Origin: Candidatus Poribacteria bacterium
GTDB taxonomy: Bacteria; Poribacteria; WGA-4E; WGA-3G
Direction of reading: 5' to 3'
DNA length: 64,000 bases
Assembly: GCA_965205025.1 (NCBI GenBank)
Contig: CBDBFU010000004.1
Location: 12,898-76,897, forward strand
Shown here: positions 48,511 through 63,720 of the stretch, piece after piece
Layout of the letters: each line of letters begins with the position of its first letter
How positions within the stretch are numbered: position 1 is the stretch's first letter
Program-made: the position numbers and the translations under genes
The notes under the pieces: generated by a model
Told to the model about the DNA's origin: nothing
Seen by the model: only the letters and a program-made list of their open reading frames with translations
Database searches by the model: none

Positions 48511-48753
48511 TCATCAATAGTTTACCAACTAATTGGATTTTACTCAATGTAAAACAATGAACGTGGGGTGTAATGTTTTTGGCATGAATACCACGAATCA
48601 TATAGTTTTAGTTTATAGTTTTTAGTTGTTTCAGAGTAACAGTGTAATTTTCAGAGCAAATGCTGTTAGATGATGTTTTATATTTTCTATAAAGTGAGTT
48701 ATAGTCTGGATTCCTATGTATTTTCTAAATAGGTCATACCTCATAATTATTAT

Positions 48754-48906
48754 ATTAACGTGTGTTTGATAAGACACATTGTAACCCGAACTTTTAGTTA
48801 ACACCAGAGTGCACAAACTGGAAAGTTTGTGCTACAAAGACTATTTTCAAGACAAAATTCTGTTTATCGATCTGACATTTTTTATTATCAAACTGACGTT
48901 ATATTA
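48754..48906. repeat. second copy of the MITE-like element (TIR AACGTGtGTTTGATAA ... TTATCAAACTgACGTTATAtTA)
   Basis: Ends match the 5216-5351 element. Interior contains palindrome GCACAAACT-GGAA-AGTTTGTGC. Confidence 0.45.
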
Positions 48907-49287
48907 AGAGTACTTTGTTCCTTACGATGTACTATATATTGAACCCAGTATTATTCTGTAAATTTACTGTTTTTTAGTTGTTCACAATAGTAATATAATT
49001 ATTATCTAATCGTTTAAAATGTTACACTTTTTGTCACATCGTGTGACATTGATAAAATCCCTCTCTCGTTAGTACTACACTATGTTTACAGCCGCTTTTT
49101 TAAGGTTACAAGAATTTACAAAAATGAAGAATTTGTGTCTTTTTTCTATTCTTCTGGTCCATTGAATTGGTATTGTATGGATGTGAAATATCTTGTCTAT
49201 CCATTTTGATAAGATATTGAAATATATCCCATAAATCATATATTTGGAGGATTCTTTGGACGTGCCATTTGCTATATTTTGAACCAA

Positions 49288-49345
49288 CGGGGAGATCCCG
49301 TTTTTACGAAGATTCGGACGGGGAGACCCCGTCCCTACGAAGAGG
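49288..49345 (+). repeat. tandem pair of GC hairpins; first is terminator-like
   Basis: ACGGGGAGATCCCGT-TTTTTACGAAGA then ACGGGGAGACCCCGT-CCCTACGAAGA, 30-bp period. Confidence 0.4.
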
Positions 49346-50290
49346 AACTGTCTTAATATGATACTCTTTAGTAAAACGAAAGAGAGTAAAATGAAAAAGT
49401 TACACTTTTCGTTACATGGTGTAACTTTGTAATATTGCTCTAATCCCTGTGGTGGACTGGGTTTATTGTAATTATCTTGAAATTTTAGAATTTTGAGTTT
49501 TGTGTCATTTTCTGGTTTTTCTGAATTTTCTGAGCACTGAAGCCATTCGCTATTTTTTCTATGTCTAATTGTATTTTTATGAATATTTTGGATTGTCATT
49601 TTTCATCTTCCTATTTATTGCTCTATGCTCTATCTTCTTTCTGTAGATGTGAATAACGATTCATATTTATGAGATACACCATAGTTTTATTTTCATAACA
49701 CAATTTTTAGATGCAAGATTTCAAACTGGTTTAAAATCAGTCCCAGAAAGGGTTTATAGATAATCCTGAAAATTGCGTTATTTTTATTTTTTTTTTAATA
49801 TTTTCATACTATGCACTTGTTTAAACTACTCTAAACCTTGTTCTGGTATGGGTTTGTAGGCATATCAGATTTTAATTTTACTTGCATAACTGTTATGCAA
49901 GTTTCATAACAACAATTTAGCTATGCTTTTACTGTGATATGTATAGTAACATAATAAGATGTATGTGTGAAGACAAAAATTATATATTGTGATATATTTA
50001 ATTATTTTATTTACTATTGTCATTTTGAAATTATGGATATTTCTATAATATTATATCTTTAGTTGTGTTATGGTTTGGTTTTCTTCAATAATTCTTCAAT
50101 TATTATTGGTTATTATATTTTTTGTTTTATTTCTCTATGTGTTATGTCATTAATTCTGAATTATGGATGGTGGGTTGTGTATGATGAATGGGAGGGTGGA
50201 AGGATGGAAGAGGAGAGGGATGTTTTGTTTTTTTGATTCTATAAATGTCTATTCCATGAATTGTTGTTATACATGTCTTTAAAATATACT

Positions 50291-50605: not shown

Positions 50606-53600
50606 ATGAGAAAAGTATTATCAGACTATATAAAAACACAGGAAGATTTCGAACGATTCTGTAATTTGTTCTTGAAAAAGGAAATATCTCCCCTTGTAAA
50701 GGTTTACAACACATCAGGACCTGATGGGGGTATTGATGCGGAATACTGTGGGACATACGCCGGGAAAAATGGTCGTTGGGTGTTTCAGTGCAAATTCCGT
50801 AACTTACCAAATACAGAGAAAACGCGACGCAACATCATTTCTGTTATGAAAGGTGACAAGAGAAGAAAAGACAAAAGAGGGGAGTTAGACAAAGCAAATG
50901 AATCGAAATGTGATCATTATATCCTAATAACCAACGTCTCGCTGACTTCAGGGAACATTGGTGAAATCAAGGGTATTCAAAGTCAGAAAGGCTATACTTT
51001 TTCATTAGACGTTTGGGATGCTGAAGACCTGATTACAATGATCGATGAATTTCCCTACATACTAAATTCATTCCGAGATCCGCATCTACCTGTATTCCTT
51101 TCTTATGAAGACATGTTCCGCGATCAAATCAAAGGCGACCATAGACTCTTGAGGTACGACTACGATACCTTTGGACGAGAGGAGGAGATTGACCAATTTA
51201 GATCCTTTGTCCAAGACACTGACAAAAGATTGTTCGTTATGTCTGGGAGTGGCGGCATCGGCAAAACTAAACTTGCAATTGAATTCGCAAAAATGGTCGA
51301 ACAAGAACACCATGACTATGAACCCTTATTTGTTCAAATTGCCGAAGATAGTTTTGAAAATGCGTTGGCAGATATTCCACCAAATAGAAAGTACATCTTC
51401 TTTGTAGATGACGCGCATGACTATATAGACAACCTTGGCGGTATTAAAATATTGCTTAAAAGTTCTGGATATAGTGAATCGAAAGCAGTCCTTATAACAC
51501 GAAAGCCGTTTAAAGCATCTTTGAGAGGGATTTTCTTATCTGCGTTACCAGAACAAGCCATTCACGAAATGGAAATTCCAAGACTATCGTTTGAGAAAAC
51601 CAAAGATTTTATCAATTCACATATACATATCCAAGACAGTGTCCGTTTGAATGACTTGGCAAAAATTGGAAAAGATACACCTTTAATTACTGTAATGGTG
51701 ATAGATCTATTCAATAAAGGAAATGATCTTAGTAAATTAACAGAAGATAAATCGATAGAACGTGTTTTTGAATCCTATATAAATGACATATTTAGTAAAC
51801 ACCTTCGTAAATATGACAAACAACACAGAACATTACTTAACTGGTTCAGTGGAATCGAACCAGTAGACATTGAAGATAACAGAACACTCGAAAAATTGGC
51901 TGAACTCTTAAAACTGGAAATCTATGAGATAGAAAGATACCGTGATGATCTTATAGGATCCGGTTTACTTGTTCAGTATGGAAGGAAGTCAAGGGTTTTC
52001 CCTGGTCCACTCAGCGATTATATTTTACGGAATGCATGTTTTTTATCCGATAGGAATACTTCCTCTTTTCACAAGTCATTGTTAGAAGAGTTTCTACCGA
52101 TCTGCCCTATCAATGTTGTTAAAAACTTAGCACGGGTAGAAATCACAGCTGGTAAAACAGAACTTCTTGACGAGTACGTAAATAAGCTTCAATTACTGGC
52201 ACAATCAGGTGATAACGCTGATCGGATGCTTATTCTACTTCAAATGGAAGGCATCTGTTATTTTCGACCAGATGATGCAATTGAGATCTTTAATATCATC
52301 CTGGATAATCCGCATTCTGAAGCCACTGAAGTGGTGGACAAGTTTTGGGGGAAATTCACGGTGACACATCAAGCGTTAGTAGAAAAGATAGCGAATGAAG
52401 CACAAAAGACTGTTTACACGCTTTCAGGATTCCGCGGAACGTTAAATGTTATTCGAAAACTTTTCCAGGCGGATAACCTGGATTCCCCTAATGTTCGTAG
52501 ACCAGAATGGTTACTAAGGGATATAGTCCGTTTCCGAAATGGTAAATCCTTTGTATTTCAAGAGGAAACTCTTGAAGCATTTGAGATGTGGAAAAATGAA
52601 GATATACCAAAGCTCAGTATAGCACTGCTCAACGCACTTGATTCTTTACTTGTAATGGATTTTCAAGAAACTGTCAGTGAAGGATTTACATTGAAGATTT
52701 CTTGGCACTCATTAAAATACACTCCAGCATTAATCCAGATTAGAGAGCGTTCTATCAATCTCATAGCAGATTGTATGAAAGTAACTCAGTATACTAAAGT
52801 TAAATTGAAAGCGATAGATTGTATTAATAAAGCTCTAAGACCGTTTGAGGGTCCTCGTAGGAACCCTGATTTGATGGATGAAGAAGAACAATTATTTCTA
52901 CAAGCAGAGCAAGAACGGCTTTTTCAAATACTTACCAATCAATTATCAGAAGAATCTGATTTCAATATCCTCAATGCCATAGATGAGTGTTTACATGTAT
53001 ACACGGAAAATCCACCCGGCTACTTAAAACAACGTGCTACACAATTGTTAGAAAAATTTGAGAAACAAGATAACTATAATCACTATCTTTTTTATAGGCA
53101 ATTTACTGGAAAATATCGACAGTGGACAACCCCAGAAGAAAAAACAAAAATTCGTTGAAAAGTATATAGAAGAATATCCAGCTAAACGTCTTGCAGAATT
53201 AATGAGTGCATTCCTGGGCTCAAGTGTGTACGAAACGAATACTTTGGCAGTAACTGAACATCTATGGACTATTGGTAAACTTAACCCAGTTTATGGATCT
53301 GAATTGTTAGATTATATTCTTTCTTTGCAGACTGATGTAAAAGATTACGCAGCAGGGTTACTTGGTGGTATTCGTTATTCCAATAACGATAAGGCATTAA
53401 AAATAGAACACCAATTATTGAAACAAGACAATATATCTGTCAAAAGAATCGTTGTAAAGAGTTTTTTATGGGTCATGGAAGGACAATCTTTAGATAAAGA
53501 TAATCTGCAAATTTTACTTCAATTGGTAGATATACCAGATGAAGGCTTAAATTCAGACATTGTTAAAACTCTACCTAATTTCTATAACGTGGACGTAGAA

Positions 53601-54450
53601 TCCGTTCGGGAGATATTACTACGATTATCAACCAATGAATCATCATTGATTAAATCGGAGACTATAAAAGTTCTTTTGAGATTCCCATCACAGAAATACT
53701 TGGACACTTACAAACAGGTAATGCACAATTGTGTGAAATTAGAACACCTTGATTATCATTCTGAGGAAGTCCTACATGCCATATTTATGTCTGATCCGAT
53801 ATGGGTTATTACGTTTTTTGAGAAACGAATTGTATACCAAGAGATGGAATTTAAGAGGAATGCTACAAATTATGAGGCAATTCCAATTCGAACTAACAAT
53901 CTGTTTAGGGAAATTGACTGGAATGACAATAACGTTATGAATGCTTTAAGGCGGGTTAGAGATTGGGGTTTAGGACCTCCGAGTTATCGTAAATGGCTGG
54001 CTCCCGGATTATTGTCATCTATGGTTGATGGGAACAGTTCTCAAATTGAAGGCACTAAAATCAACAAAACGGTGCAAACAATCCTTGAAGAATGGATTGA
54101 CTCAGAAGATTCAGATAAGATGTGGTGGGTAGCTTGTTTGTTGAGAAATTTTGATAAAGACAAAAACTTTTTACTCTCTTGTAGAATCACTTCTTATAAA
54201 AAGTAAAGGAAATGCAAAGATATTAACCGAAATTGAAGTTTCTATTGGTAATGTAGGTGCTTATTCCGGACCTCTTGGTGAACCGCTACCTCACCATGTA
54301 AAACGCCTCGAATACCTTAAGGCATTGCAAGACAAAACTGAATCCTCAATTGTCAAACAGTTTGCAGATCGCCTCATAGATAGAACAAAACAGGAAATCG
54401 AAAGAGAACAGCAAAGGGATGAAGAATTTCTTGAAGGAGAGGAATGGTAA
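50606..54450 (+). pseudogene. Avs-like antiviral STAND NTPase with N-terminal Mrr-type PD-(D/E)xK nuclease domain; interrupted by two +1 frameshifts at A-runs (~53140 and ~54160)
   Basis: N-terminal ...GPDGGIDAEYCG...WVFQCKFRN (Mrr_cat motif), then P-loop MSGSGGIGKTKLAIEFA (NB-ARC/STAND-like), then long helical-repeat region. ORFs 50606-53158, 53058-54206 and 54151-54450 are successive +1 frames. Their joins fall in GAAAAAACAAAAATT and ACAAAAACTTTTTAC. Confidence 0.5.
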
Positions 54451-54647
54451 ACCTAACGCACGAACAAGACCTCCTTGACGAAATTGACAACCTTAATTCA
54501 CAAAACCAAATTCAAAATTCTGTCGGTTTACCCCCACAAGAAGTTAAATCAAAAATTGAGAGACTAATTAAAACGACCCAACAGCGGATTAACGCCACAG
54601 AATTACATCTGAACTTAATAAAAAAAATAGATTCAGAAATCAGTTAA
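54444..54647 (+). CDS. small hypothetical protein (67 aa), start overlaps preceding stop (ATGGTAA)
   Basis: Translational-coupling-type overlap. No homology recognised. Confidence 0.3.
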   Translation: MVNLTHEQDLLDEIDNLNSQNQIQNSVGLPPQEVKSKIERLIKTTQQRINATELHLNLIKKIDSEIS

Positions 54648-55623
54648 TACATGATGACATAGATAGTGTAGTTCATCCAATATCTCCTCTTTCAGGTCTT
54701 ACATCTGATCCAAAATTGAATTTCTACAATTCATTCTTTCCTACTAATACCTCCCCAACCAGTCCTACTACAGAAGTAATCACTTTCTGCAAATATGTTT
54801 TTCAAGAGACTGTCAATTTTATAGATGTATGTTATAAGTTGACTTATGATGACCTACAACAAAGCGGAAGTCTTCCAGTTTAGTATTCTCAGATTTCTAA
54901 TGTCAGAGAACTTGAAAAAGTGATAGCATTCATGGCAGGATTGCACTGCAAATTTCGCATTTTTGACATTGAGTAAGTCAAAATATGCTGATTCAATCCT
55001 TAATTCAATTTTTTCTTGCACAATTTTTGTATAATTGATACAATACCTGCTGACGTTAATAATTCGCGAAGCGCGCGTGGGTTACGTCAGGAAGCTGCCT
55101 AAGTTTGCTTAGGTGCGTCACCGGTGCAGCAACACCAGCGACGCTTAGCACTGACATAAACGGACTATGACAGCGCTGGTTTCTATTATAGCATATAGCA
55201 TAAAGTTTTTCTTTCTGTTAGTTCTAAGATGGGAACCAGCTTCCTATAGGGATGAGTTGCCTGAAAATACTTCTCTTTTATTGACAGATATGTCTGTCAA
55301 CCCACCCTGTAGACTGTCAAGACTATATACACAACCCTGGTGTAATTTTGATACAGTCTAAATTCAAATACACCCATAAATTACTATATATCACAATCGG
55401 TTTGTTTCTATTCACAAATTCTCATATTCTGTCGTAGCGATTTTCGATTCACGACATACTATCGAGAATCGGAATCTTCTCCTATTTTGTATGATGTTGT
55501 GAATTGAGAAGTTTTGATATTCAAAACTCAAACGAGACCAACGGGTGTAATATAAATATGTCAAGTGTTAACTGTCATAACGCATAAAATTAAGAAAATC
55601 TAATTTTTTCATAAGAGTTCCAC

Positions 55624-58600
55624 TTGATGCAACAAGATCAGAACAGAACATCAGAATCCCTACAAAAACTACAAGACCTACTCCAAAAACTTTTCCGTGC
55701 AGATGCCGCCGACCTTGACTTCGGCATCTACCGTGTCATTAACCAACGACGCAATCTAATCCAAGCTTATATTGACCAAGAACTTCCCACCGAAATAAAT
55801 GATGCGCTTAACGCAAACGCCGAAATTGAATCAGATCGCGAAAAACTTGAAGAGCTAAAAAAAGGAGTCGTAGATGCTTTTGGTAATGATGTGTTAGATG
55901 TAGAGGGAAATCTAATTGATGAATCCATTAAAGAGCGTCCTGGAGTTAAGAAATACCTTGAGGAGAAAGAACGAATTGGCTCCCCGCAAACTCGTGATCA
56001 GCGCGCAGATGTCGTTTTCAATCATCTTTACACCTTCTTCTCACGATATTACGATAACGGAGACTTTATCCCACGCAGACGTTATTCACAAACCGAACGT
56101 TACGCTGTTCCATATAACGGTGAAGAGGTATATCTCCATTGGGCAAACCGAGATCAATACTATGTCAAGAGTGGAGAGCACTTCTCCGATTACAGATTTA
56201 AGTCTCAAGAAATTACCGTTATCTTTGACCTTCAAAATGTAGATATTGAAAAAGACAATGTCCAAGGCGTTAAACGTTTCTTTATTCCTATAGCAGCAGA
56301 GACTAAATATAACTCAGAAACCGACAAGGTGTGCATCCCTTTTGAATACCGTCCCCTTACCGATGACGAAAAATCACGCTACGGCACCCGCGACCAACAG
56401 GACAAAATCATTGATGCTGCAGAACCTGAAATCTTGGAAAAACTGTCAAACCATTATAATGCATTATCTGCCCTTGAGCATCAAACAGAGGATGTAACCA
56501 TCCTCAAGAAACACCTCCGAACCTATACACGCCGCAACAATGCCGACTTTTTCATTCACAAGAACCTTGGGCAGTTTTTTAATCAAGAATTGGATGTCTT
56601 CATCAAAAACGAAGTGATACCGATGTCCTCACTCATTTTTGATGATGTTAATTTCAATTTAGAGAATCTAAACAAGGTAAATTGGATTGAAACAGCAAAT
56701 CTCGTTCTCACCATCGCTTCTAAGATTATTGATTTCTTGGCACACATTGAAGAATTCCAAAAACGTCTTTGGCTAAAAAAGAAGTTTGTTCTTTCTACCG
56801 ATTACTGCTTTACGCTTGACCGTGTCCCAGAAGAACTCTATCCCGATATAGCGGAGAACGATGCACAACTTGAGGAGTGGAAAGACCTTTTTTCTATTCA
56901 CGAAATAGACCACGACCTTATCCATACCGATTACTCCGAGCCGCTCTCCGTTAACTTTCTCAAAGAAAATCCGAACCTTGTTTTGGATACCTGCCACTTC
57001 GACTCTGACTTCAAAGATCGCCTCTTGACACATTTTAACGATCTGGATAACGAGACAGACGGCTTGTTAATTCATGGGGAGAACTTTCAAGGATTGAATC
57101 TGCTGACTGAGAAATACCGAGAATCTGTAAAGTGTATCCACATTGATCCACCGTATAATACTCAAACAAGTGGGTTTCTCTATAAAAACTCATACCAGCA
57201 TTCAAGTTGGTTATCAATGATGGCAGATAGATTGACTTTATCTGAATATTTTATGGCCCAGGATAGTTGTTTCTTCTCTCATATTGACGAGAGCGAATAT
57301 GAGAAACTTTTCTTGTTTTTTAAAACATTATCAATGGATGATCAAGGGACAGTTGTGTGGGATAAAAGGAACCCCATTGGAGCATCAAATACGATAGCGA
57401 CACAACACGAATATACTATTTGTCATTCTAAGGGAAATGTAAAATTAAAGTCACAACATGCTAATGGTGAAATAATATTAAAAAAAGCATCGTCATTAAT
57501 GAAAGCACATAGTGGAGTTACAGTCCAATGCCGTAAAGAATTTAAAACTTGGATTAACACAAATACAGAGTTAAGCGGAATGGAACGATCCTATTCTGCA
57601 ATTGACGATAATGGACATGTTTATACAACTGTCCATATGGGAGCTGGAGATGTCCGAACAGATCCTAAATACTTTAGACATTTAATTCATCCTATTACTA
57701 AGAAACCTTGTCCTGTGCCGAAAAATGGTTGGTCAAGTACTCCAGAATACATAGATGGTTTATTACAGAATAATGAAGTTAGCTTCGGCGTTGATGAAAC
57801 AACTCAACCACGCCGAAAGTGTTATTTGAAAGATAATCTGACAGGTGAATTAACGTCTGTAATTTCAACTGGTGAACGGGGCAAACACCAACTGGATGCG
57901 TTTGGTTTAGATTTTCCGTATTCTCACCCCGTAGGTTTGTATGAAAAACTTGCTTGGTCAGTTACACCTGATGGAGAAGGTATAATACTTGACTTTTTTG
58001 CAGGTAGTGGTACTAATGCCCACGCAGTTATTAATCTCAATCGTAAAGATCATGGAAACCGAAAATACATCCTTATTGAGATGGGACACCACTTTGATAC
58101 TGCACTGATGCCTCGCGTCAAAAAAGCTGTTTATGCAGAAAAATGGAAGGATGCAAAACCTGTCTCTCGTGATAGTAGACTTTCCCACATCATTAAATAC
58201 CAGCGTATTGAATCTTATGAAGATGCCCTCAATAACATAGAATTCAACGAAACTGATTATCAAAATCTGTTAGTTAACGAACACCAATTGAGTTATATGT
58301 TGGAAAGCGATACAAAGGAATGTCCAACGTTTCTAAACATCTCGGAACTCCAAAACCCGTTCAGTTATCAACTTGATATTGTCAAAGATATGCAGACACA
58401 TACACAGACAGTGGATTTACCCGAAACCTTCAACTATCTTCTCGGTTTATCAGTCAAGACTCGTCAGTGCTTGTACGATGATGACAGACGTTATCTTGTC
58501 TACAGAGGAACAGTTGGGCAAAAGTTGGTCGTCATTATCTGGCGTGAAACTTCAGGGTGGGAACAAGAAGATTATGAACGTGATTATCGTTTCATTCAGG

Positions 58601-58710
58601 AGAATGAACTCACAGAAGGTGCAGCAGAGGTGTATGTCAACACAGATAGCAATGTCCCGGAGGCAAAATCTTTAGATCCGCTTTTTAAACGGTTAATGTT
58701 TTCACAATAA
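55624..58710 (+). CDS. Type III restriction-modification Mod-like N6-adenine (beta-class) DNA methyltransferase with ~480-aa N-terminal extension of unknown function
   Basis: LIHGENFQGLNLLTEKYRESVKCIHIDPPYNT (motif IV DPPY preceded by the Type III Mod I-x-GDNL-x-L box), ATQHEYTICHSKGN, motif I ILDFFAGSGTNAHAV. 1028 aa. Confidence 0.8.
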   Translation: MMQQDQNRTSESLQKLQDLLQKLFRADAADLDFGIYRVINQRRNLIQAYIDQELPTEINDALNANAEIESDREKLEELKKGVVDAFGNDVLDVEGNLIDESIKERPGVKKYLEEKERIGSPQTRDQRADVVFNHLYTFFSRYYDNGDFIPRRRYSQTERYAVPYNGEEVYLHWANRDQYYVKSGEHFSDYRFKSQEITVIFDLQNVDIEKDNVQGVKRFFIPIAAETKYNSETDKVCIPFEYRPLTDDEKSRYGTRDQQDKIIDAAEPEILEKLSNHYNALSALEHQTEDVTILKKHLRTYTRRNNADFFIHKNLGQFFNQELDVFIKNEVIPMSSLIFDDVNFNLENLNKVNWIETANLVLTIASKIIDFLAHIEEFQKRLWLKKKFVLSTDYCFTLDRVPEELYPDIAENDAQLEEWKDLFSIHEIDHDLIHTDYSEPLSVNFLKENPNLVLDTCHFDSDFKDRLLTHFNDLDNETDGLLIHGENFQGLNLLTEKYRESVKCIHIDPPYNTQTSGFLYKNSYQHSSWLSMMADRLTLSEYFMAQDSCFFSHIDESEYEKLFLFFKTLSMDDQGTVVWDKRNPIGASNTIATQHEYTICHSKGNVKLKSQHANGEIILKKASSLMKAHSGVTVQCRKEFKTWINTNTELSGMERSYSAIDDNGHVYTTVHMGAGDVRTDPKYFRHLIHPITKKPCPVPKNGWSSTPEYIDGLLQNNEVSFGVDETTQPRRKCYLKDNLTGELTSVISTGERGKHQLDAFGLDFPYSHPVGLYEKLAWSVTPDGEGIILDFFAGSGTNAHAVINLNRKDHGNRKYILIEMGHHFDTALMPRVKKAVYAEKWKDAKPVSRDSRLSHIIKYQRIESYEDALNNIEFNETDYQNLLVNEHQLSYMLESDTKECPTFLNISELQNPFSYQLDIVKDMQTHTQTVDLPETFNYLLGLSVKTRQCLYDDDRRYLVYRGTVGQKLVVIIWRETSGWEQEDYERDYRFIQENELTEGAAEVYVNTDSNVPEAKSLDPLFKRLMFSQ

Positions 58711-58785
58711 TACCAATTTTGCTTAATTAGTTTACATTAATAGCAAATCGGAGAAGCTAATTTAGTTCAAAAGGATTCTATAAAC

Positions 58786-58856
58786 ATTCCGTCCCTACGG
58801 GACTCAAGATAATGGATAAGCACGTTTTCTATAGACATTTCGTCCCTACGGGACTC
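58786..58856. repeat. two ~35-bp direct repeats each containing hairpin GTCCC-TAC-GGGAC
   Basis: TCTATAAACATTCCGTCCCTACGGGACTCAAGATA / TCTATAGACATTTCGTCCCTACGGGACTCATAATA. Confidence 0.45.
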
Positions 58857-59037
58857 ATAATATCTATATGATAAACCTTATATCACGTAAGTCACGTAAG
58901 TCATAATGTAAATTTATCAATTGAAAATGGTATTATATGGTCTTAATTATTTCAAGGGAAATGACCCATGAAACTCGAAGAAAATAAAAGAATCTGTTGT
59001 TCAAGGAAACGGAGTGAGTTTGTTGAATACCTAACAC

Positions 59038-60492
59038 TATAGGCGTCAATTTTAGAAAAAGGATGTCTGATTTTTCAATAATAATTATTGTTAAGTGAAA
59101 ACATCTCCTATATAATGTATAAAAATATTACCTTTTACTTTATACAAGAGGTGTTTCCAATGAATACATTATCACAGGTTCCTGAAAAAATGCAACAGAT
59201 TCTAACAACCATTGCTGATGAAGCAGCCCTTGAAACAGGATTTTGCAAAAGAAATCGAAAACTTGCGGGGAGTCATTTTGCTCAGACACTTATTTATAGT
59301 TGGTTAGAAAATCCTGATGCCACCTATACTCAACTTACACATACTGCTGCTTCTCTCGGTACTCCAATCTCACGACAAGCGATTGAACAACGATTTACTG
59401 CTGAAGCTGCACAAACCCTCAAAGCAATCCTTGACGCGGCTGCGTCCGAAGTGATTTCTGCGGATCCACAAGTTCTCCCACTCCTTGAACAGTTCAACGG
59501 TATCTATATACAAGATAGTTCTTGGATAACACTCCCTGATACGCTTCACGATATTTGGGAAGGTGCCAGTAAAAAGGATTATCCGAACAAATCCGAACTG
59601 AAACTCCATCTACGCTTCGATGTTGCTACAGGGACATTCGAACACTTTCAACTCACCAACGGCATCACCGCTGATAGCACTGTAGAAAAACAGATTGACC
59701 GGCTCCCCCAAGGGAGTTTACGCCTTGCGGATCTCGGTTATTTTTCGCTACAAACCCTTCAAGAACTTACGGACGAAGGGGTCTTTTGGATTTCACGGTA
59801 TAAAGTTAGGTGTTCGGTTTTTGACAATACAGGAAAGCCTCTTTGTTTACATAAATGGCTCAAGTTTCAGACCGAAAACATTATCGAAACAGATATTTTC
59901 ATAGGTTCAAAAAAGCGGATGAAAGTAAGATTAGTAGCTCAGAGACTCTCCGAAGAAGAAACCGAAAAACGACGACGAGATATCAACTATCGTGCTAAAC
60001 GAAAGCATACACAAGCATCACAGGCACGACTCCAACTCGCAGGTTGGAATATCTACATTACAAATATTGGAACGGATCAACTCACCGCTGAACAGATATG
60101 TGTCATTGCGCGGATTCGATGGCAGATCGAGTTGATATTTAAGTGCTTTAAAAGCCTTGGAAAAGTAGACACATCACGAAGTAAAAAACCGTATCGTATT
60201 CTATGTGAAATATATGCTAAACTGATCGCTGCAATCATTCGGCATTGGGTGATGTTGGTCATAGGATGGCGATGTTTACGGCATAGTTTATCGAAAACAG
60301 TAGAGCTTATTACGTCCTACACACGCACAATCACAATAAGCTTTCGCAAGTCAAAGAGACATCTTAGAGAGACATTTGATGAGATAAAACAAGTATTCGA
60401 AAACGGGTGCTACATTGAAAGAAGAGCTAATAGAAAAACAACATTGGAATATCTTGAAAATGCTACAAAAAACCGCTAAATTGACGCCTATG
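59038..60492 (+). mobile_element. complete IS4-family insertion sequence (1455 bp) with 15-bp terminal inverted repeats, flanked by a perfect 20-bp direct repeat
   Basis: IRL TATAGGCGTCAATTT (59038-59052); IRR reverse complement CATAGGCGTCAATTT (60478-60492). Flanking direct repeats GTTTGTTGAATACCTAACAC at 59018-59037 and 60493-60512. Single transposase ORF. Confidence 0.75.
59160..60479 (+). CDS. IS4-family DDE transposase
   Basis: AAGAGGTG RBS then ATG 59160 (MNTLSQV...). C-terminal Y-x-x-R-W-x-I-E-x-x-F-K motif (IARIRWQIELIFKCFKSLGK) is typical of IS4/DDE_Tnp_1. Confidence 0.8.
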   Translation: MNTLSQVPEKMQQILTTIADEAALETGFCKRNRKLAGSHFAQTLIYSWLENPDATYTQLTHTAASLGTPISRQAIEQRFTAEAAQTLKAILDAAASEVISADPQVLPLLEQFNGIYIQDSSWITLPDTLHDIWEGASKKDYPNKSELKLHLRFDVATGTFEHFQLTNGITADSTVEKQIDRLPQGSLRLADLGYFSLQTLQELTDEGVFWISRYKVRCSVFDNTGKPLCLHKWLKFQTENIIETDIFIGSKKRMKVRLVAQRLSEEETEKRRRDINYRAKRKHTQASQARLQLAGWNIYITNIGTDQLTAEQICVIARIRWQIELIFKCFKSLGKVDTSRSKKPYRILCEIYAKLIAAIIRHWVMLVIGWRCLRHSLSKTVELITSYTRTITISFRKSKRHLRETFDEIKQVFENGCYIERRANRKTTLEYLENATKNR

Positions 60493-60570
60493 GTTTGTTG
60501 AATACCTAACACCCAGAAGGCACCAACAACGCAACTCAAAAAAGAGACACGGCAACTCACAGAACACACG

Positions 60571-63500
60571 GTGAACGCAATGCCTAACGCACGACAGCAA
60601 CGCAAACTTGACAACCATCTCACCCTTCACGGATGGTTAAATAGCCACTTCAAGTACAAAACAACACAAGACCTTCTTAACGCAGTAAAAAACGAAGAGG
60701 AAGGCTTCAATCCAGATGGACACTCTCCCATCTGTGAATTTCTTATCTCCCGTGCAGAGCCAGATTCAGCAATTGAGAATGCCCTACCAACCTACGACAG
60801 TAACATCAAACGACACCTGTCCGCTATAAACAGTAAACGTACACAACCGATTGTTCTCCGCTATTTCCAATACCTTTCCCTGATCTATACCGAAATATTC
60901 CTTGATTGGAAATTCAACAAAAGTGGTGAATTCTTACGTCAACTCAATGATTTTGTCCAAACACGTAACGATGCGCGAGCACCGAGTGACGCGATGGATA
61001 CACCTTTTTCAGAAGCAGACGTTGAAAAACTCGCCTTCTGGATGGCAACGGGTGCTGGCAAAACACTTATTATGCACATCAATTATCACCAGTTCCTGCA
61101 TTACTGCAAAGAAAAGTTAGACCACATTGTGCTTATCACACCTAACGAAGGATTAAGCGAACAGCACATGCGTGAACTCGCAAACTCGGATATCCGATGC
61201 GAACGGTTTAACGTTGAAGGTAATCGTCTGTCGCACGCGGACGATACGATGCAAGTCATTGAAATTACAAAGTTAGTAGAGGAAAAAACAGGTAGCGGGG
61301 TAAGTGTTCCAGTTGAGGCATTTGAGGGAAATAATCTTATTCTTGTTGATGAAGGACATAAAGGCAGCGGTGGTAAAGTTTGGCGTGAATACCGAGAAGC
61401 ACTTGCCGAAACAGGTTTCACTTTTGAATACAGTGCGACCTTCGGACAGGCACTCGCTGCTGCAAGCAATGCTGATCTCATTGATGAGTACGGTAAATCC
61501 ATTGTATTTGATTATTCCTACCGATATTTCTATGGTGATGGATACGGTAAGAACTTCCGCATTCTCAACGTCAAACATGACGACGCAACCCAAACGGAGA
61601 TGCTACTTTTAGGCAATCTTCTGAGCTTCTATGAACAGAGACGTTATTTCAGTCAAAATACTGAGGTAGTGTGTGATTACGGTTTAGACTCGCCACTGTG
61701 GGCATTTGTCGGTAGTAGGGTGAATGCCGTTTATTCCGAAAACAAACAATCACGTTCTGATGTTCTTAACGTTATAAGCTTTCTGCATCAGTTCCTGAGA
61801 AATGAAAAAGGATGGGCAATTGATACTATTGAGAAAATCCTCAACAACGATTCCGGATTAAAAGATGACAACGGTAGCGATGTTTTTTACAATAGACTTA
61901 GTTATCTCAAAGAATCCAGAGATACACCAGCGCAAATTTACACCGCTATTCTCAACGAGGTATTTCACACTGATTCAAGTGGGGAATTACACCTGAGTGA
62001 CGTCCGTAATGCTCCTGGTGAAATCGCTTTAAAAACAACACATGGTAGTAAGGAATTCGGACTCATTTACATCGGTGACACGTCTGCCTTCAAAAAACTT
62101 GTTGAAAATGACGATGCAGGTATTAAAACGGATTCTGAAGATGTTCTCACCGAGAGTCTCTTTAACGGCATTAACACCGTTGACAGTCCAATTAATATTC
62201 TCATTGGCGCGAAAAAGTTCATTGAAGGATGGGACAGTTGGCGTGTCACCGCTATGGGACTATTGAACATTGGTAAGCAAGAAGGCTCTCAGATCATTCA
62301 GCTTTTCGGCAGAGGGGTTCGCCTACGTGGCAATGATATGTGTCTTAAACGAAGTAGTGCCGTTGGTGGTGAACATCCGCCTAATCTTCCACTTTTAGAA
62401 ACACTTAACATTTTTGCTGTCCGTGCCAATTTCATGGTACAATTCCGAGATTACCTTATGCGTGAGGGTGTCCCACCCGACGAACCTGTCCAATTGGAAT
62501 TACCCATCAAACCGAACATAAATTACCTTTCGAATCAACTTTTTGTTCCAAAAGTGTTGGAATATAACAAAGCTGCGAAAGGAAAGTGTGTAATGCTTAA
62601 AGCAGATCCAGCTGCTATTATTTCCCATACGACCCAAAGCGTTGAGATTATTGGGAGTAGTTCACAGAGTGGTATCCAAGGGGATCGAGCGGATGCGGCA
62701 CTCCAAACTCATATTGAAGATAAATACTTGAAATTAGTAGACTGGGAGAACATTTACTTGCAACTCCTTGAGTACAAGCAAGAAAAAGAATTTCATAATC
62801 TGATTTTTAATACCGAGATTCTTCAACAGATACTTAATCCAAACAAAGGTTTATATGAACTTTATGTCATGGATGAGTCTGAAGTTATGCCGAAATCATT
62901 TGTTGAATTGGAACGATTAGAGGAATTAGTACTAACACTCCTCCGCAAATATATTGCTAAATTTTATCGTATTATTCAAAAACGTTGGAATGATGAAGCA
63001 GTACGCTTAGATAAGTTGAAAAAAGAGAACCCTAACTTCACTAATTGGAAAGTTTCCATCCCTCGAGAGGATGCAAGTGAACTTGAGCCACAAATAAAAC
63101 ATCTCATAGAAAATGGCGTTATATATGGACCTGATTTAACCCATCTTCCCAATATCTATAATGACCGTCATCTCTACCAACCCCTTCTCACTGTAGGTGA
63201 AGTAGACACGGTGTTACGTACAACCCCGCCAGCCTTAGAGGAAAGTGAAAAACACTTTGTCGAAGATCTTCGTCGTTACGTACGTAATCAAGATGAGACA
63301 CTCCTTGCCAAAAAGGAGATTTACCTCTTACGTAACCAGAGCCGTGGCAAAGGAATGGGTTTTTTCGTAAATGAAGGCTTTTACCCCGACTTCATCCTCT
63401 GGATACTTGAAGGTGTGAAACAGCGGATCGTTTTCATAGAACCCCACGGTATGATCTATGAAGTCATAAATGAACACAACGACAAAATTACTCTTTTCAA

Positions 63501-63720
63501 GAGACTGCGATCCCTCTCCCATGAACGTTTCCGTGGTGAACACGTGCAAATGGATGCCTATATGATTTCAAGAACCAGTATGTCTAATCTTATACGTAAA
63601 TATCAAGACGAGGACAGAGATACATTTGCAGAAAAATGGCATATCCTTTTCCGCACCGATACCGATCCCACCTACCTTTCCCCAATCTTTCAAGATCCAG
63701 ATTCAGATTTTTCTGCCTGA
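60571..63720 (+). CDS. Type III restriction enzyme Res-like subunit: SF2 helicase/ATPase with C-terminal nuclease-like region
   Basis: Motif I MATGAGKTLIM, motif II LILVDEGHKG (DEAH-type), motif III YSATFGQA, motif VI QLFGRGVRL. C-terminal YPDFILW...RIVFIEPHG resembles PD-(D/E)xK with K replaced by H. 1049 aa. The start is GTG 60571 or ATG 60580. Confidence 0.75.
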   Translation: MNAMPNARQQRKLDNHLTLHGWLNSHFKYKTTQDLLNAVKNEEEGFNPDGHSPICEFLISRAEPDSAIENALPTYDSNIKRHLSAINSKRTQPIVLRYFQYLSLIYTEIFLDWKFNKSGEFLRQLNDFVQTRNDARAPSDAMDTPFSEADVEKLAFWMATGAGKTLIMHINYHQFLHYCKEKLDHIVLITPNEGLSEQHMRELANSDIRCERFNVEGNRLSHADDTMQVIEITKLVEEKTGSGVSVPVEAFEGNNLILVDEGHKGSGGKVWREYREALAETGFTFEYSATFGQALAAASNADLIDEYGKSIVFDYSYRYFYGDGYGKNFRILNVKHDDATQTEMLLLGNLLSFYEQRRYFSQNTEVVCDYGLDSPLWAFVGSRVNAVYSENKQSRSDVLNVISFLHQFLRNEKGWAIDTIEKILNNDSGLKDDNGSDVFYNRLSYLKESRDTPAQIYTAILNEVFHTDSSGELHLSDVRNAPGEIALKTTHGSKEFGLIYIGDTSAFKKLVENDDAGIKTDSEDVLTESLFNGINTVDSPINILIGAKKFIEGWDSWRVTAMGLLNIGKQEGSQIIQLFGRGVRLRGNDMCLKRSSAVGGEHPPNLPLLETLNIFAVRANFMVQFRDYLMREGVPPDEPVQLELPIKPNINYLSNQLFVPKVLEYNKAAKGKCVMLKADPAAIISHTTQSVEIIGSSSQSGIQGDRADAALQTHIEDKYLKLVDWENIYLQLLEYKQEKEFHNLIFNTEILQQILNPNKGLYELYVMDESEVMPKSFVELERLEELVLTLLRKYIAKFYRIIQKRWNDEAVRLDKLKKENPNFTNWKVSIPREDASELEPQIKHLIENGVIYGPDLTHLPNIYNDRHLYQPLLTVGEVDTVLRTTPPALEESEKHFVEDLRRYVRNQDETLLAKKEIYLLRNQSRGKGMGFFVNEGFYPDFILWILEGVKQRIVFIEPHGMIYEVINEHNDKITLFKRLRSLSHERFRGEHVQMDAYMISRTSMSNLIRKYQDEDRDTFAEKWHILFRTDTDPTYLSPIFQDPDSDFSA

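Follow-up and report, generated by a model that had tools for sequence, protein, structure and literature searches.

The stretch analysed here, which we refer to as the window, comprises 64,000 nucleotides (nt) of contig CBDBFU010000004.1 (positions 12,898 to 76,897 of the forward strand) from Candidatus Poribacteria, a group of uncultivated sponge symbionts. The gene in question, at 50606-54450, encodes a STAND NTPase with an N-terminal Mrr-type nuclease domain and a long C-terminal region of helical repeats, and it is followed by a small partner gene. In the window, the STAND gene is divided over three open reading frames (ORFs) and the partner gene has lost a large internal segment. We consider it probable that the pair is a copy, only recently inactivated, of an Avs-like defence module of two genes that is specific to Candidatus Poribacteria. 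The family to which it belongs is widespread and usually intact in this phylum, and it is uncharacterised.

Lesions in the STAND gene and its partner

The first-pass annotation had proposed that three consecutive ORFs, each in the next +1 frame, reconstitute a protein of about 1280 residues and that both joins lie in A-rich homopolymeric sequence, and our analysis confirmed its coordinates as well as the position of the joins. The ORFs proceed from frame 2 to frame 0 to frame 1, and each join is a +1 shift (Table 1). The stop codon of the first ORF is a TGA that arises from the first frameshift, the second ORF has a mechanical extent of 53058-54206 (382 aa), and the C-terminal end of the third is identical to that of intact homologues. 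The overlaps between the open frames confine junction 1 to 53052-53156 and junction 2 to 54145-54204. When one base is skipped at each join, a frame of 1280 codons with 0 stops is obtained, and its product can be aligned over its full length with intact homologues from Candidatus Poribacteria, of which there are more than 100. A search with this repaired protein returned 217 matches, and the best 120 of these are nearly all 1280-1310 aa long at a query coverage of 97-100%; the exceptions among these 120 are two 1259-aa proteins, one 1333-aa protein and the 850-aa product of the first ORF itself. Identity to the repaired protein is 84% for the homologue P0001 and 77% for P0002 and P0003, and along segments 1, 2 and 3 the identity of P0001 is 85%, 79% and 88%. 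Homology carries on unbroken through both joins (...TTPEEKQKFVEKYIEE... and ...DKVFYSLVESLLIKSKG...), so the observation of a split gene is far beyond chance.

Nucleotide alignment with three intact loci located the lesions themselves. Of the intact loci, L001 comes closest to the window, at 88.8% identity. The only frame-breaking differences within the STAND gene are one additional A at 53139-53144 and one additional base at 54162-54166. Junction 1 reads AGAAG-AAAAAA-C-AAAAA-TTCG, and junction 2 reads GAC-AAAAA-C-TTTTT-AC, in which the A5 occupies 54162-54166 and the T5 54168-54172. The alignment places the second extra base in the A-run (GACAAAAAC in the window versus GAC-AAAG in the relatives). 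The two STAND lesions are independent single-A insertions in short A-runs.

The second gene of the module and the deletion within it were absent from the first-pass annotation. A scan of species-representative genomes yielded 32 Poribacteria loci, and in 31 of them the STAND gene is followed by the partner. In all nine gene-called intact loci examined, the partner gene encodes a protein of ~270-300 aa (about 280) without a Pfam domain, and in each of the nine its ATG overlaps the STAND stop codon by 7 nt (ATGGTGA). The partner is translationally coupled to the STAND gene via this overlap, which is kept in the window. The gap in the partner gene was seen against two independent references, L001 and the syntenic locus L050 (L050 12091-12495). 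The latter belongs to a related genome and has the same gene order as the window, namely an ABC transporter, ferritin, a periplasmic binding protein, STAND, partner, type III Mod and Res. Its flanks are 91-93% identical in nucleotide sequence, its flanking ORFs match in length, and both of its module genes are intact. The STAND product in the window ends at residue 850 and loses the last third of the sensor region. Because the STAND protein is truncated at this point and the partner lacks residues ~64-197, the module in the window is, as judged from its sequence, non-functional and unable to work as its intact relatives do.

Table 1. Features of the STAND-partner locus and of the adjoining restriction-modification genes (positions counted from the first letter of the window)
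Feature	Position	Strand	Description
STAND fragment 1	50606..53158	+	850 aa, frame 2; nuclease, NTPase, winged-helix, start of helical sensor
Mrr-type PD-(D/E)xK nuclease domain	50639..51040	+	aa 12-145; GIDAE (D44), FQCKF (Q61-x-K63)
Walker A P-loop GSGGIGKT	51245..51268	+	aa 214-221; invariant in 44 homologues
Frameshift 1	53139..53144	+	A6 in window versus A5 in 3/3 intact reference loci; 1-nt insertion
STAND fragment 2	53145..54167	+	~341 codons, frame 0; HEAT-like sensor
STAND fragment 3	54151..54450	+	99 aa, frame 1; conserved C-terminal tail ...EEFLEGEEW
Frameshift 2	54162..54172	+	AAAAACTTTTT (A5-C-T5) in window versus AAAGTTTTTT in relatives; one extra base
Partner 5' remnant	54444..54647 (aa 1-63: 54444-54632)	+	partner aa 1-63; ATG overlapping STAND stop
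Partner deletion junction	54632..54633	+	403 nt (134 codons + 1 nt) gone, aa ~64-197; frame shifted
Partner 3' remnant	54633..54883	+	aa ~198-280, other frame; FRNQLIHDD (Rx4H) and C-terminal helix
Type III restriction-modification Mod methyltransferase	55624..58710	+	intact
Insertion sequence (IS)	59036..60494 (widest 59018-60512)	+	DDE_Tnp_1 (IS4-type) transposase 59088-60479, between mod and res
Type III restriction Res helicase-nuclease	60571..63720	+	intact

The intact family in Poribacteria

Where source records give a name to these Candidatus Poribacteria homologues, it is 'hypothetical', 'ATP-binding' or 'HEAT repeat domain-containing' protein. The domain order first read from the sequence, an Mrr-like nuclease followed by an NB-ARC-like P-loop and ~800 residues of helical repeats, was upheld in each of its parts. 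The isolated N-terminal 170 aa matched the Pfam family Mrr_cat (PF04471) with E=5.3e-4 and 20.5 bits (cutoff 21) over nearly the full profile (6-114 of 115), and a match to Mrr_cat was obtained in 11 of 34 family members. In alignments of 34 and 44 sequences, E26 (in helix 1), D40, D44, Q61 and K63 are invariant, with the motif GIDAE ... FQxKF, and the D...QxK residue set is the predicted Mrr-type catalytic set. The NTPase and winged-helix module spans residues ~185-480. Its P-loop was borne out as that of a STAND NTPase, with G214-T221 (Walker A), F265-D269 (Walker B, FFVDD) and T298-R299 (sensor-1 arginine) invariant or nearly so. The matches of this region to the Pfam families nSTAND3, AAA_16, ATPase_2, NPHP3_N and NB-ARC are all weak and below threshold; the window protein missed the gathering score of nSTAND3 (PF20720) at 25.3 versus 27.2 bits, and that of nSTAND_NTPase5 (PF25199) was missed at 30.8 bits at most versus 34. 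The C-terminal ~800 aa gave weak HEAT_2 matches in the window protein, and PF13646 is precomputed for ~51 of the best 120 of the 217 homologues. When the PDB was searched with sequence profiles of the STAND family, of the nuclease domain and of the partner, a marginal NB-ARC P-loop match was all that was recovered.

We also modelled residues 1-520 with AlphaFold2 and compared the model with the PDB by Foldseek. The model shows an alpha/beta core together with helical and winged-helix elements. Its best matches are Avs4 (8dgf, E=1e-10) and Avs3 (8dgc, E=1.5e-9), followed by Apaf-1, EfAvs5 and plant and animal NLRs.

The similarity between family members is unevenly distributed along the protein. 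The window protein and its syntenic allele P0011 are 92-96% identical over residues 1-300 and 39-50% identical over residues 700-1280, whereas the non-syntenic P0001 is 78-91% identical to the window protein throughout (the regions compared were window 50606-54450, L050:8001-11909 and L001:10001-13861). The predicted sensor region is mosaic and hypervariable in sequence. This pattern points to an exchange of sensor modules by recombination, with a chimeric metagenome assembly being less likely. The Mrr-like domain (window 50606-51115) exists in two allelic types of its own, FQCKFRNLPNTEK and FQYKFFDPT, and a TDRNGN insert may be present or absent in the second type. The types are discordant with overall protein similarity, as in P0011, which is 62% identical overall and ~95% identical in the Mrr domain.

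The partner probably represents a HEPN-type RNase that acts as a second effector or as a regulator, as far as its conserved residues indicate. R199 and H204 do not vary across the 34 partner sequences, where they form the motif IRNxLxH (Rx4H). Weak HEPN matches were obtained among these 34 for HEPN_Cthe2314 (15 sequences), pEK499_p136 (1) and HEPN_Apea (1), at scores of at most ~17 bits versus 27. The AlphaFold2 model of the partner is all-helical, with a predicted local distance difference test score (pLDDT) of 78 and a predicted template modelling score (pTM) of 0.81. The partner has been lost independently at least 5 times in 33 loci, and the STAND gene is still intact in four of those cases. 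The losses found outside the window include an in-frame deletion of aa 23-235 (L005:13912-14091), a loss of aa 1-187 (L007:5466-5744), an IS630-like insertion (L018:14121-15391) and an IS3-like (rve) insertion (L033:14661-15877). The repeated independent loss of the partner while the STAND gene survives suggests that the partner may be the costly or toxic component of the module.

Most species representatives of the Poribacteria carry the module, at a fairly uniform identity of 52-57%, and its clade is confined to Poribacteria. Decay of the STAND gene was also seen at other loci, as frameshifts in L011 and L035 and as a truncation in L034. The two frameshifted genes are paralogous STAND copies on one contig (CBDBFT010000001.1), and each is one T short in a T4 run (L011:~13650 and L035:~10954); the lesion in L011 lies 3-6 nt from junction 2 of the window, within the same VFY codons. 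These lesions could reflect a mutational hotspot, parallel inactivation or homopolymer errors of that long-read assembly. An exhaustive search yielded 100 clusters at E<=1e-30. Relaxing the threshold to E<=1e-10 brought the number to 658, so that the superfamily comprises at least this many clusters at 50% identity. Distant relatives with 23-29% identity and lengths of ~1260-1480 aa (including P0284 and P0268) share the NTPase and sensor and differ in their N-terminal modules, among which a caspase (Peptidase_C14, 3e-16) takes the place of the effector. In seven of seven distant relatives tested, nSTAND_NTPase5 was the best Pfam match, again below threshold.

Probable pseudogenisation and the alternatives

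The first-pass annotation had left three explanations for the split gene side by side, namely recent inactivation, slippage-controlled expression and a homopolymer sequencing artefact. The first of these is now favoured. We regard real pseudogenisation of the STAND gene as likely, and a very recent event is preferred because the other genes of the window are unshifted and the corresponding pair in L050 is intact. Lineage-specific substitutions divide into synonymous and non-synonymous changes at 62:65 on the branch leading to the window and 41:47 on that of the intact L001. With 0 stops in the repaired frame and a ratio that resembles that of the intact branch, the inactivation is either very recent or the two indels are unreal; provided that they are real, it is very recent.

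Several observations weigh against the reading of the locus as a freshly inactivated defence module. Compared with the L001 branch, the window branch carries no signature of relaxed selection, which fits an intact gene equally well, and homopolymer expansion, the type to which both STAND indels belong, is a classic sequencing error. The matches to the Mrr_cat, nSTAND3 and HEPN families of Pfam all lie below gathering thresholds, the model of residues 1-520 has a moderate pLDDT of 68 and low TM-scores to Avs4 and Avs3 (0.26-0.32), and the partner model has no significant neighbour in the PDB. At E<=0.1, none of the AVAST/Avs (Avs1-5) models of PADLOC v2 was matched by the fragments from the window or by any of four intact homologues. 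The largest clade has the module in a conserved non-defence synteny among arrays of GFO_IDH_MocA oxidoreductases, and a role of the family in phage defence is putative.

The best surviving alternative is that the organism carries an intact STAND gene, the two additional A's having entered the consensus of a metagenome-assembled contig as homopolymer errors. We compared the STAND gene, which has 65 A/T runs of at least 4 nt, with 35 other window ORFs of at least 200 aa (48.4 kb, 672 such runs) and found 0 frameshifts in the latter. A uniform error rate derived from the two events in the STAND gene would predict ~21 elsewhere, and the probability of observing none is ~8e-10. If the rate is instead set to the 95% upper bound that zero errors elsewhere allow, the probability of two or more errors in the STAND gene is ~0.03. 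Two groups of overlapping ORFs that were considered as further frameshifts (24834/25898 and 37200/37763/37941) turned out to be distinct genes, for example porin/imelysin and a PepSY protein/TonB receptor. Over ~11 kb, the flanking genes that can be compared with the syntenic L050 show the same ORF lengths. An artefact would account for +1 expansions of short A-runs, for a repaired frame without stops and for non-synonymous change that is not in excess, and the single-T losses in T4 runs in both STAND copies of the metagenome-assembled genome (MAG) CBDBFT01 could equally be assembly errors. However, the loss in the adjacent partner gene is not a homopolymer error because of its size of 403 nt, and the island shows other real decay in the form of an inserted IS and a missing WD40 gene. 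Exact-pattern scans of metagenomes of the Joint Genome Institute (JGI) for junction 1 (A5 or A6) and for the partner-deletion junction gave no match. We consider an artefact unlikely, and an error in the assembly, itself improbable, would concern the two single-base indels only.

A second alternative is that the family is not an immune system at all but a Poribacteria-specific housekeeping or signalling STAND ATPase, whose loss here would be incidental genome erosion in a symbiont. The presence of the module in most species representatives at uniform identity fits this view, as does the synteny of the main clade with the oxidoreductase arrays, where the neighbours also include a periplasmic binding protein and a luciferase-like gene and no defence genes are found. 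In contrast, defence genes lie within 5 kb of the module in 4 independent loci (the window and L050 counted as one) of the nine, versus a published null frequency of 0.0153 (PMC13581612), in a small sample of nine loci in which the neighbours were called by Pfam and not by DefenseFinder. These are a type III restriction-modification system in the window and L050, four TIR genes and a type III restriction-modification system in L003, an HNH gene and an MTase-Mrr gene in L001, and a prokaryotic Argonaute (pAgo) in L047; no defence genes were found within this distance in L002, L048/L049, L051 and L052. In L047, a Piwi-domain protein (the Argonaute, 702 aa) and a DUF6785 protein are encoded at L047:3736-7836, directly 5' of an intact STAND-partner pair. 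The housekeeping explanation is further opposed by the invariant nuclease residues at the N terminus, the replacement of this effector by a caspase among distant relatives, the best fold matches (Avs4 and Avs3), the HEPN-like nature of the partner, the recombinant and mosaic sensor and the frequent independent knock-outs. We judge it to be quite improbable.

Regulated expression, whether by phase-variable slippage or by programmed +1 ribosomal frameshifting at the A-runs, is essentially excluded: the lesions do occur in homopolymer runs, and an indel in another genome lies a few bases from junction 2, but close and distant intact homologues are all in frame at both sites and the shift is unconserved, the tracts are only 5-6 nt long while those of contingency loci are typically much longer, two corrections would be needed simultaneously, and the deletion of the partner is irreversible.

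Further changes are seen in the island that surrounds the pseudogenised module. The IS between mod and res carries 17-nt terminal inverted repeats, and copies of a perfect 20-nt direct repeat, GTTTGTTGAATACCTAACAC, lie on both sides of it. The syntenic L050 lacks the element, and no empty target site was found there. The insertion may uncouple the expression of res from that of mod. Just 3' of mod, at 58776-58862, there are two 36-nt repeats that are 89% identical and 51 nt apart, each with a GTCCCTACGGGAC hairpin; these could be a repetitive extragenic palindromic (REP)-like element or a tandem terminator. A 630-aa WD40-repeat gene of L050 (L050:4456-6828) is missing in the window, where its place is taken by ~700 nt of AT-rich non-coding DNA (48614-49307, GC content ~0.30), and the small gene that adjoins this site (49306-49599, minus strand) has 84% amino acid identity with its L050 counterpart. 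No tRNA was found in the window. The broken copy is a case of ordinary gene decay and of defence-island turnover. As an example of the rapid gain and loss that is expected of defence islands, it is in itself of little weight.

Proposed mechanism and comparison with known systems

The intact relatives are of greater value than the broken copy; they combine an Mrr-STAND-HEAT protein with a HEPN-like partner and are undetected by the PADLOC Avs models. We tentatively propose that they constitute an uncharacterised, phylum-wide Avs-like system in which an Mrr nuclease fused in cis is joined by a coupled HEPN-like effector in trans and in which the sensors are shuffled. The first gene of the intact module encodes a protein of ~1290 aa made up of the Mrr nuclease, the STAND NTPase and winged-helix module and ~800 aa of HEAT-like repeats. 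If this protein acts as Avs3 and Avs4 do, its HEAT-like sensor may bind a phage protein, upon which nucleotide-dependent oligomerisation of the STAND module would follow, and the Mrr domains clustered in this way could cleave DNA and abort the infection. The HEPN-like partner would probably add RNase activity or regulate the complex. If this two-effector reading is true, the window offers a snapshot of partner and sensor turnover. The mosaic sensors at a syntenic locus, the swaps between Mrr and caspase effectors and the repeated partner knock-outs are natural experiments that could reveal how bacterial NLR-like receptors diversify and which component bears the fitness cost. The intact family is a reasonable candidate for experimental characterisation.

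Avs4 (EcAvs4, PDB 8DGF) and Avs3 (SeAvs3, PDB 8DGC) are antiviral STAND sensors of phage portal and terminase. The Poribacteria protein has the tripartite layout of the Avs proteins, with an N-terminal effector, a central STAND NTPase and a C-terminal sensor of at least 400 aa (here ~800 aa). It shares with Avs4 and Avs3 an N-terminal nuclease effector (Mrr-like in Avs4), the STAND NTPase and a large sensor of helical repeats, and the defence-island setting of the window is likewise comparable. The differences are that sequence identity is 11-16%, with the low TM-scores given above, and that neither protein was recovered by the sequence-profile search of the PDB. In addition, the Poribacteria protein has ~1290 aa compared to 1540-2030 aa and a HEAT-like sensor, its gene has a near-obligatory coupled partner, and its clade is confined to one phylum. 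The designation as Avs-like that the first-pass annotation had given stood as regards domain order, stood tentatively as regards fold, with Avs4 and Avs3 as the best matches at low TM-scores, and failed as regards profiles, in that no AVAST/Avs profile of PADLOC was matched; it applies only to architecture and, tentatively, to fold. Avs4 is the closest known system in domain order, effector type and fold match, and at the level of sequence the family is not a member of Avs1-5.

Other known families resemble single parts of the module. The nSTAND3 and nSTAND5 families ('Novel STAND NTPase') are the best Pfam matches of the P-loop and Walker B region, with scores of the Poribacteria proteins that remain below the gathering thresholds. 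The nearest PADLOC entry, the candidate PDC-S73, was matched by the N-terminal nuclease and P-loop region of the homologue P0026 (aa 12-268 versus profile positions 11-248, E=3.3e-10) and weakly by the distant relative P0268; the match covers only the first third of the 752-position profile, the window protein has none, and no mention of PDC-S73 was found in the literature searched. The partner resembles HEPN RNase effectors in its invariant R199-x4-H204 and in its weak matches to three HEPN families, and differs from them in scores well below threshold and in a model without a significant PDB neighbour.

A 2026 census of prokaryotic defence STANDs described 589 clades, of which 198 are defence-associated, including Avs7-21 (PMC13581612). 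Compared with this census by its criteria, the Poribacteria family displays both properties that define a defence clade there, an immune-type effector and defence genes within 5 kb. The modularity of effector and sensor that the same census describes is also seen in the Poribacteria family.

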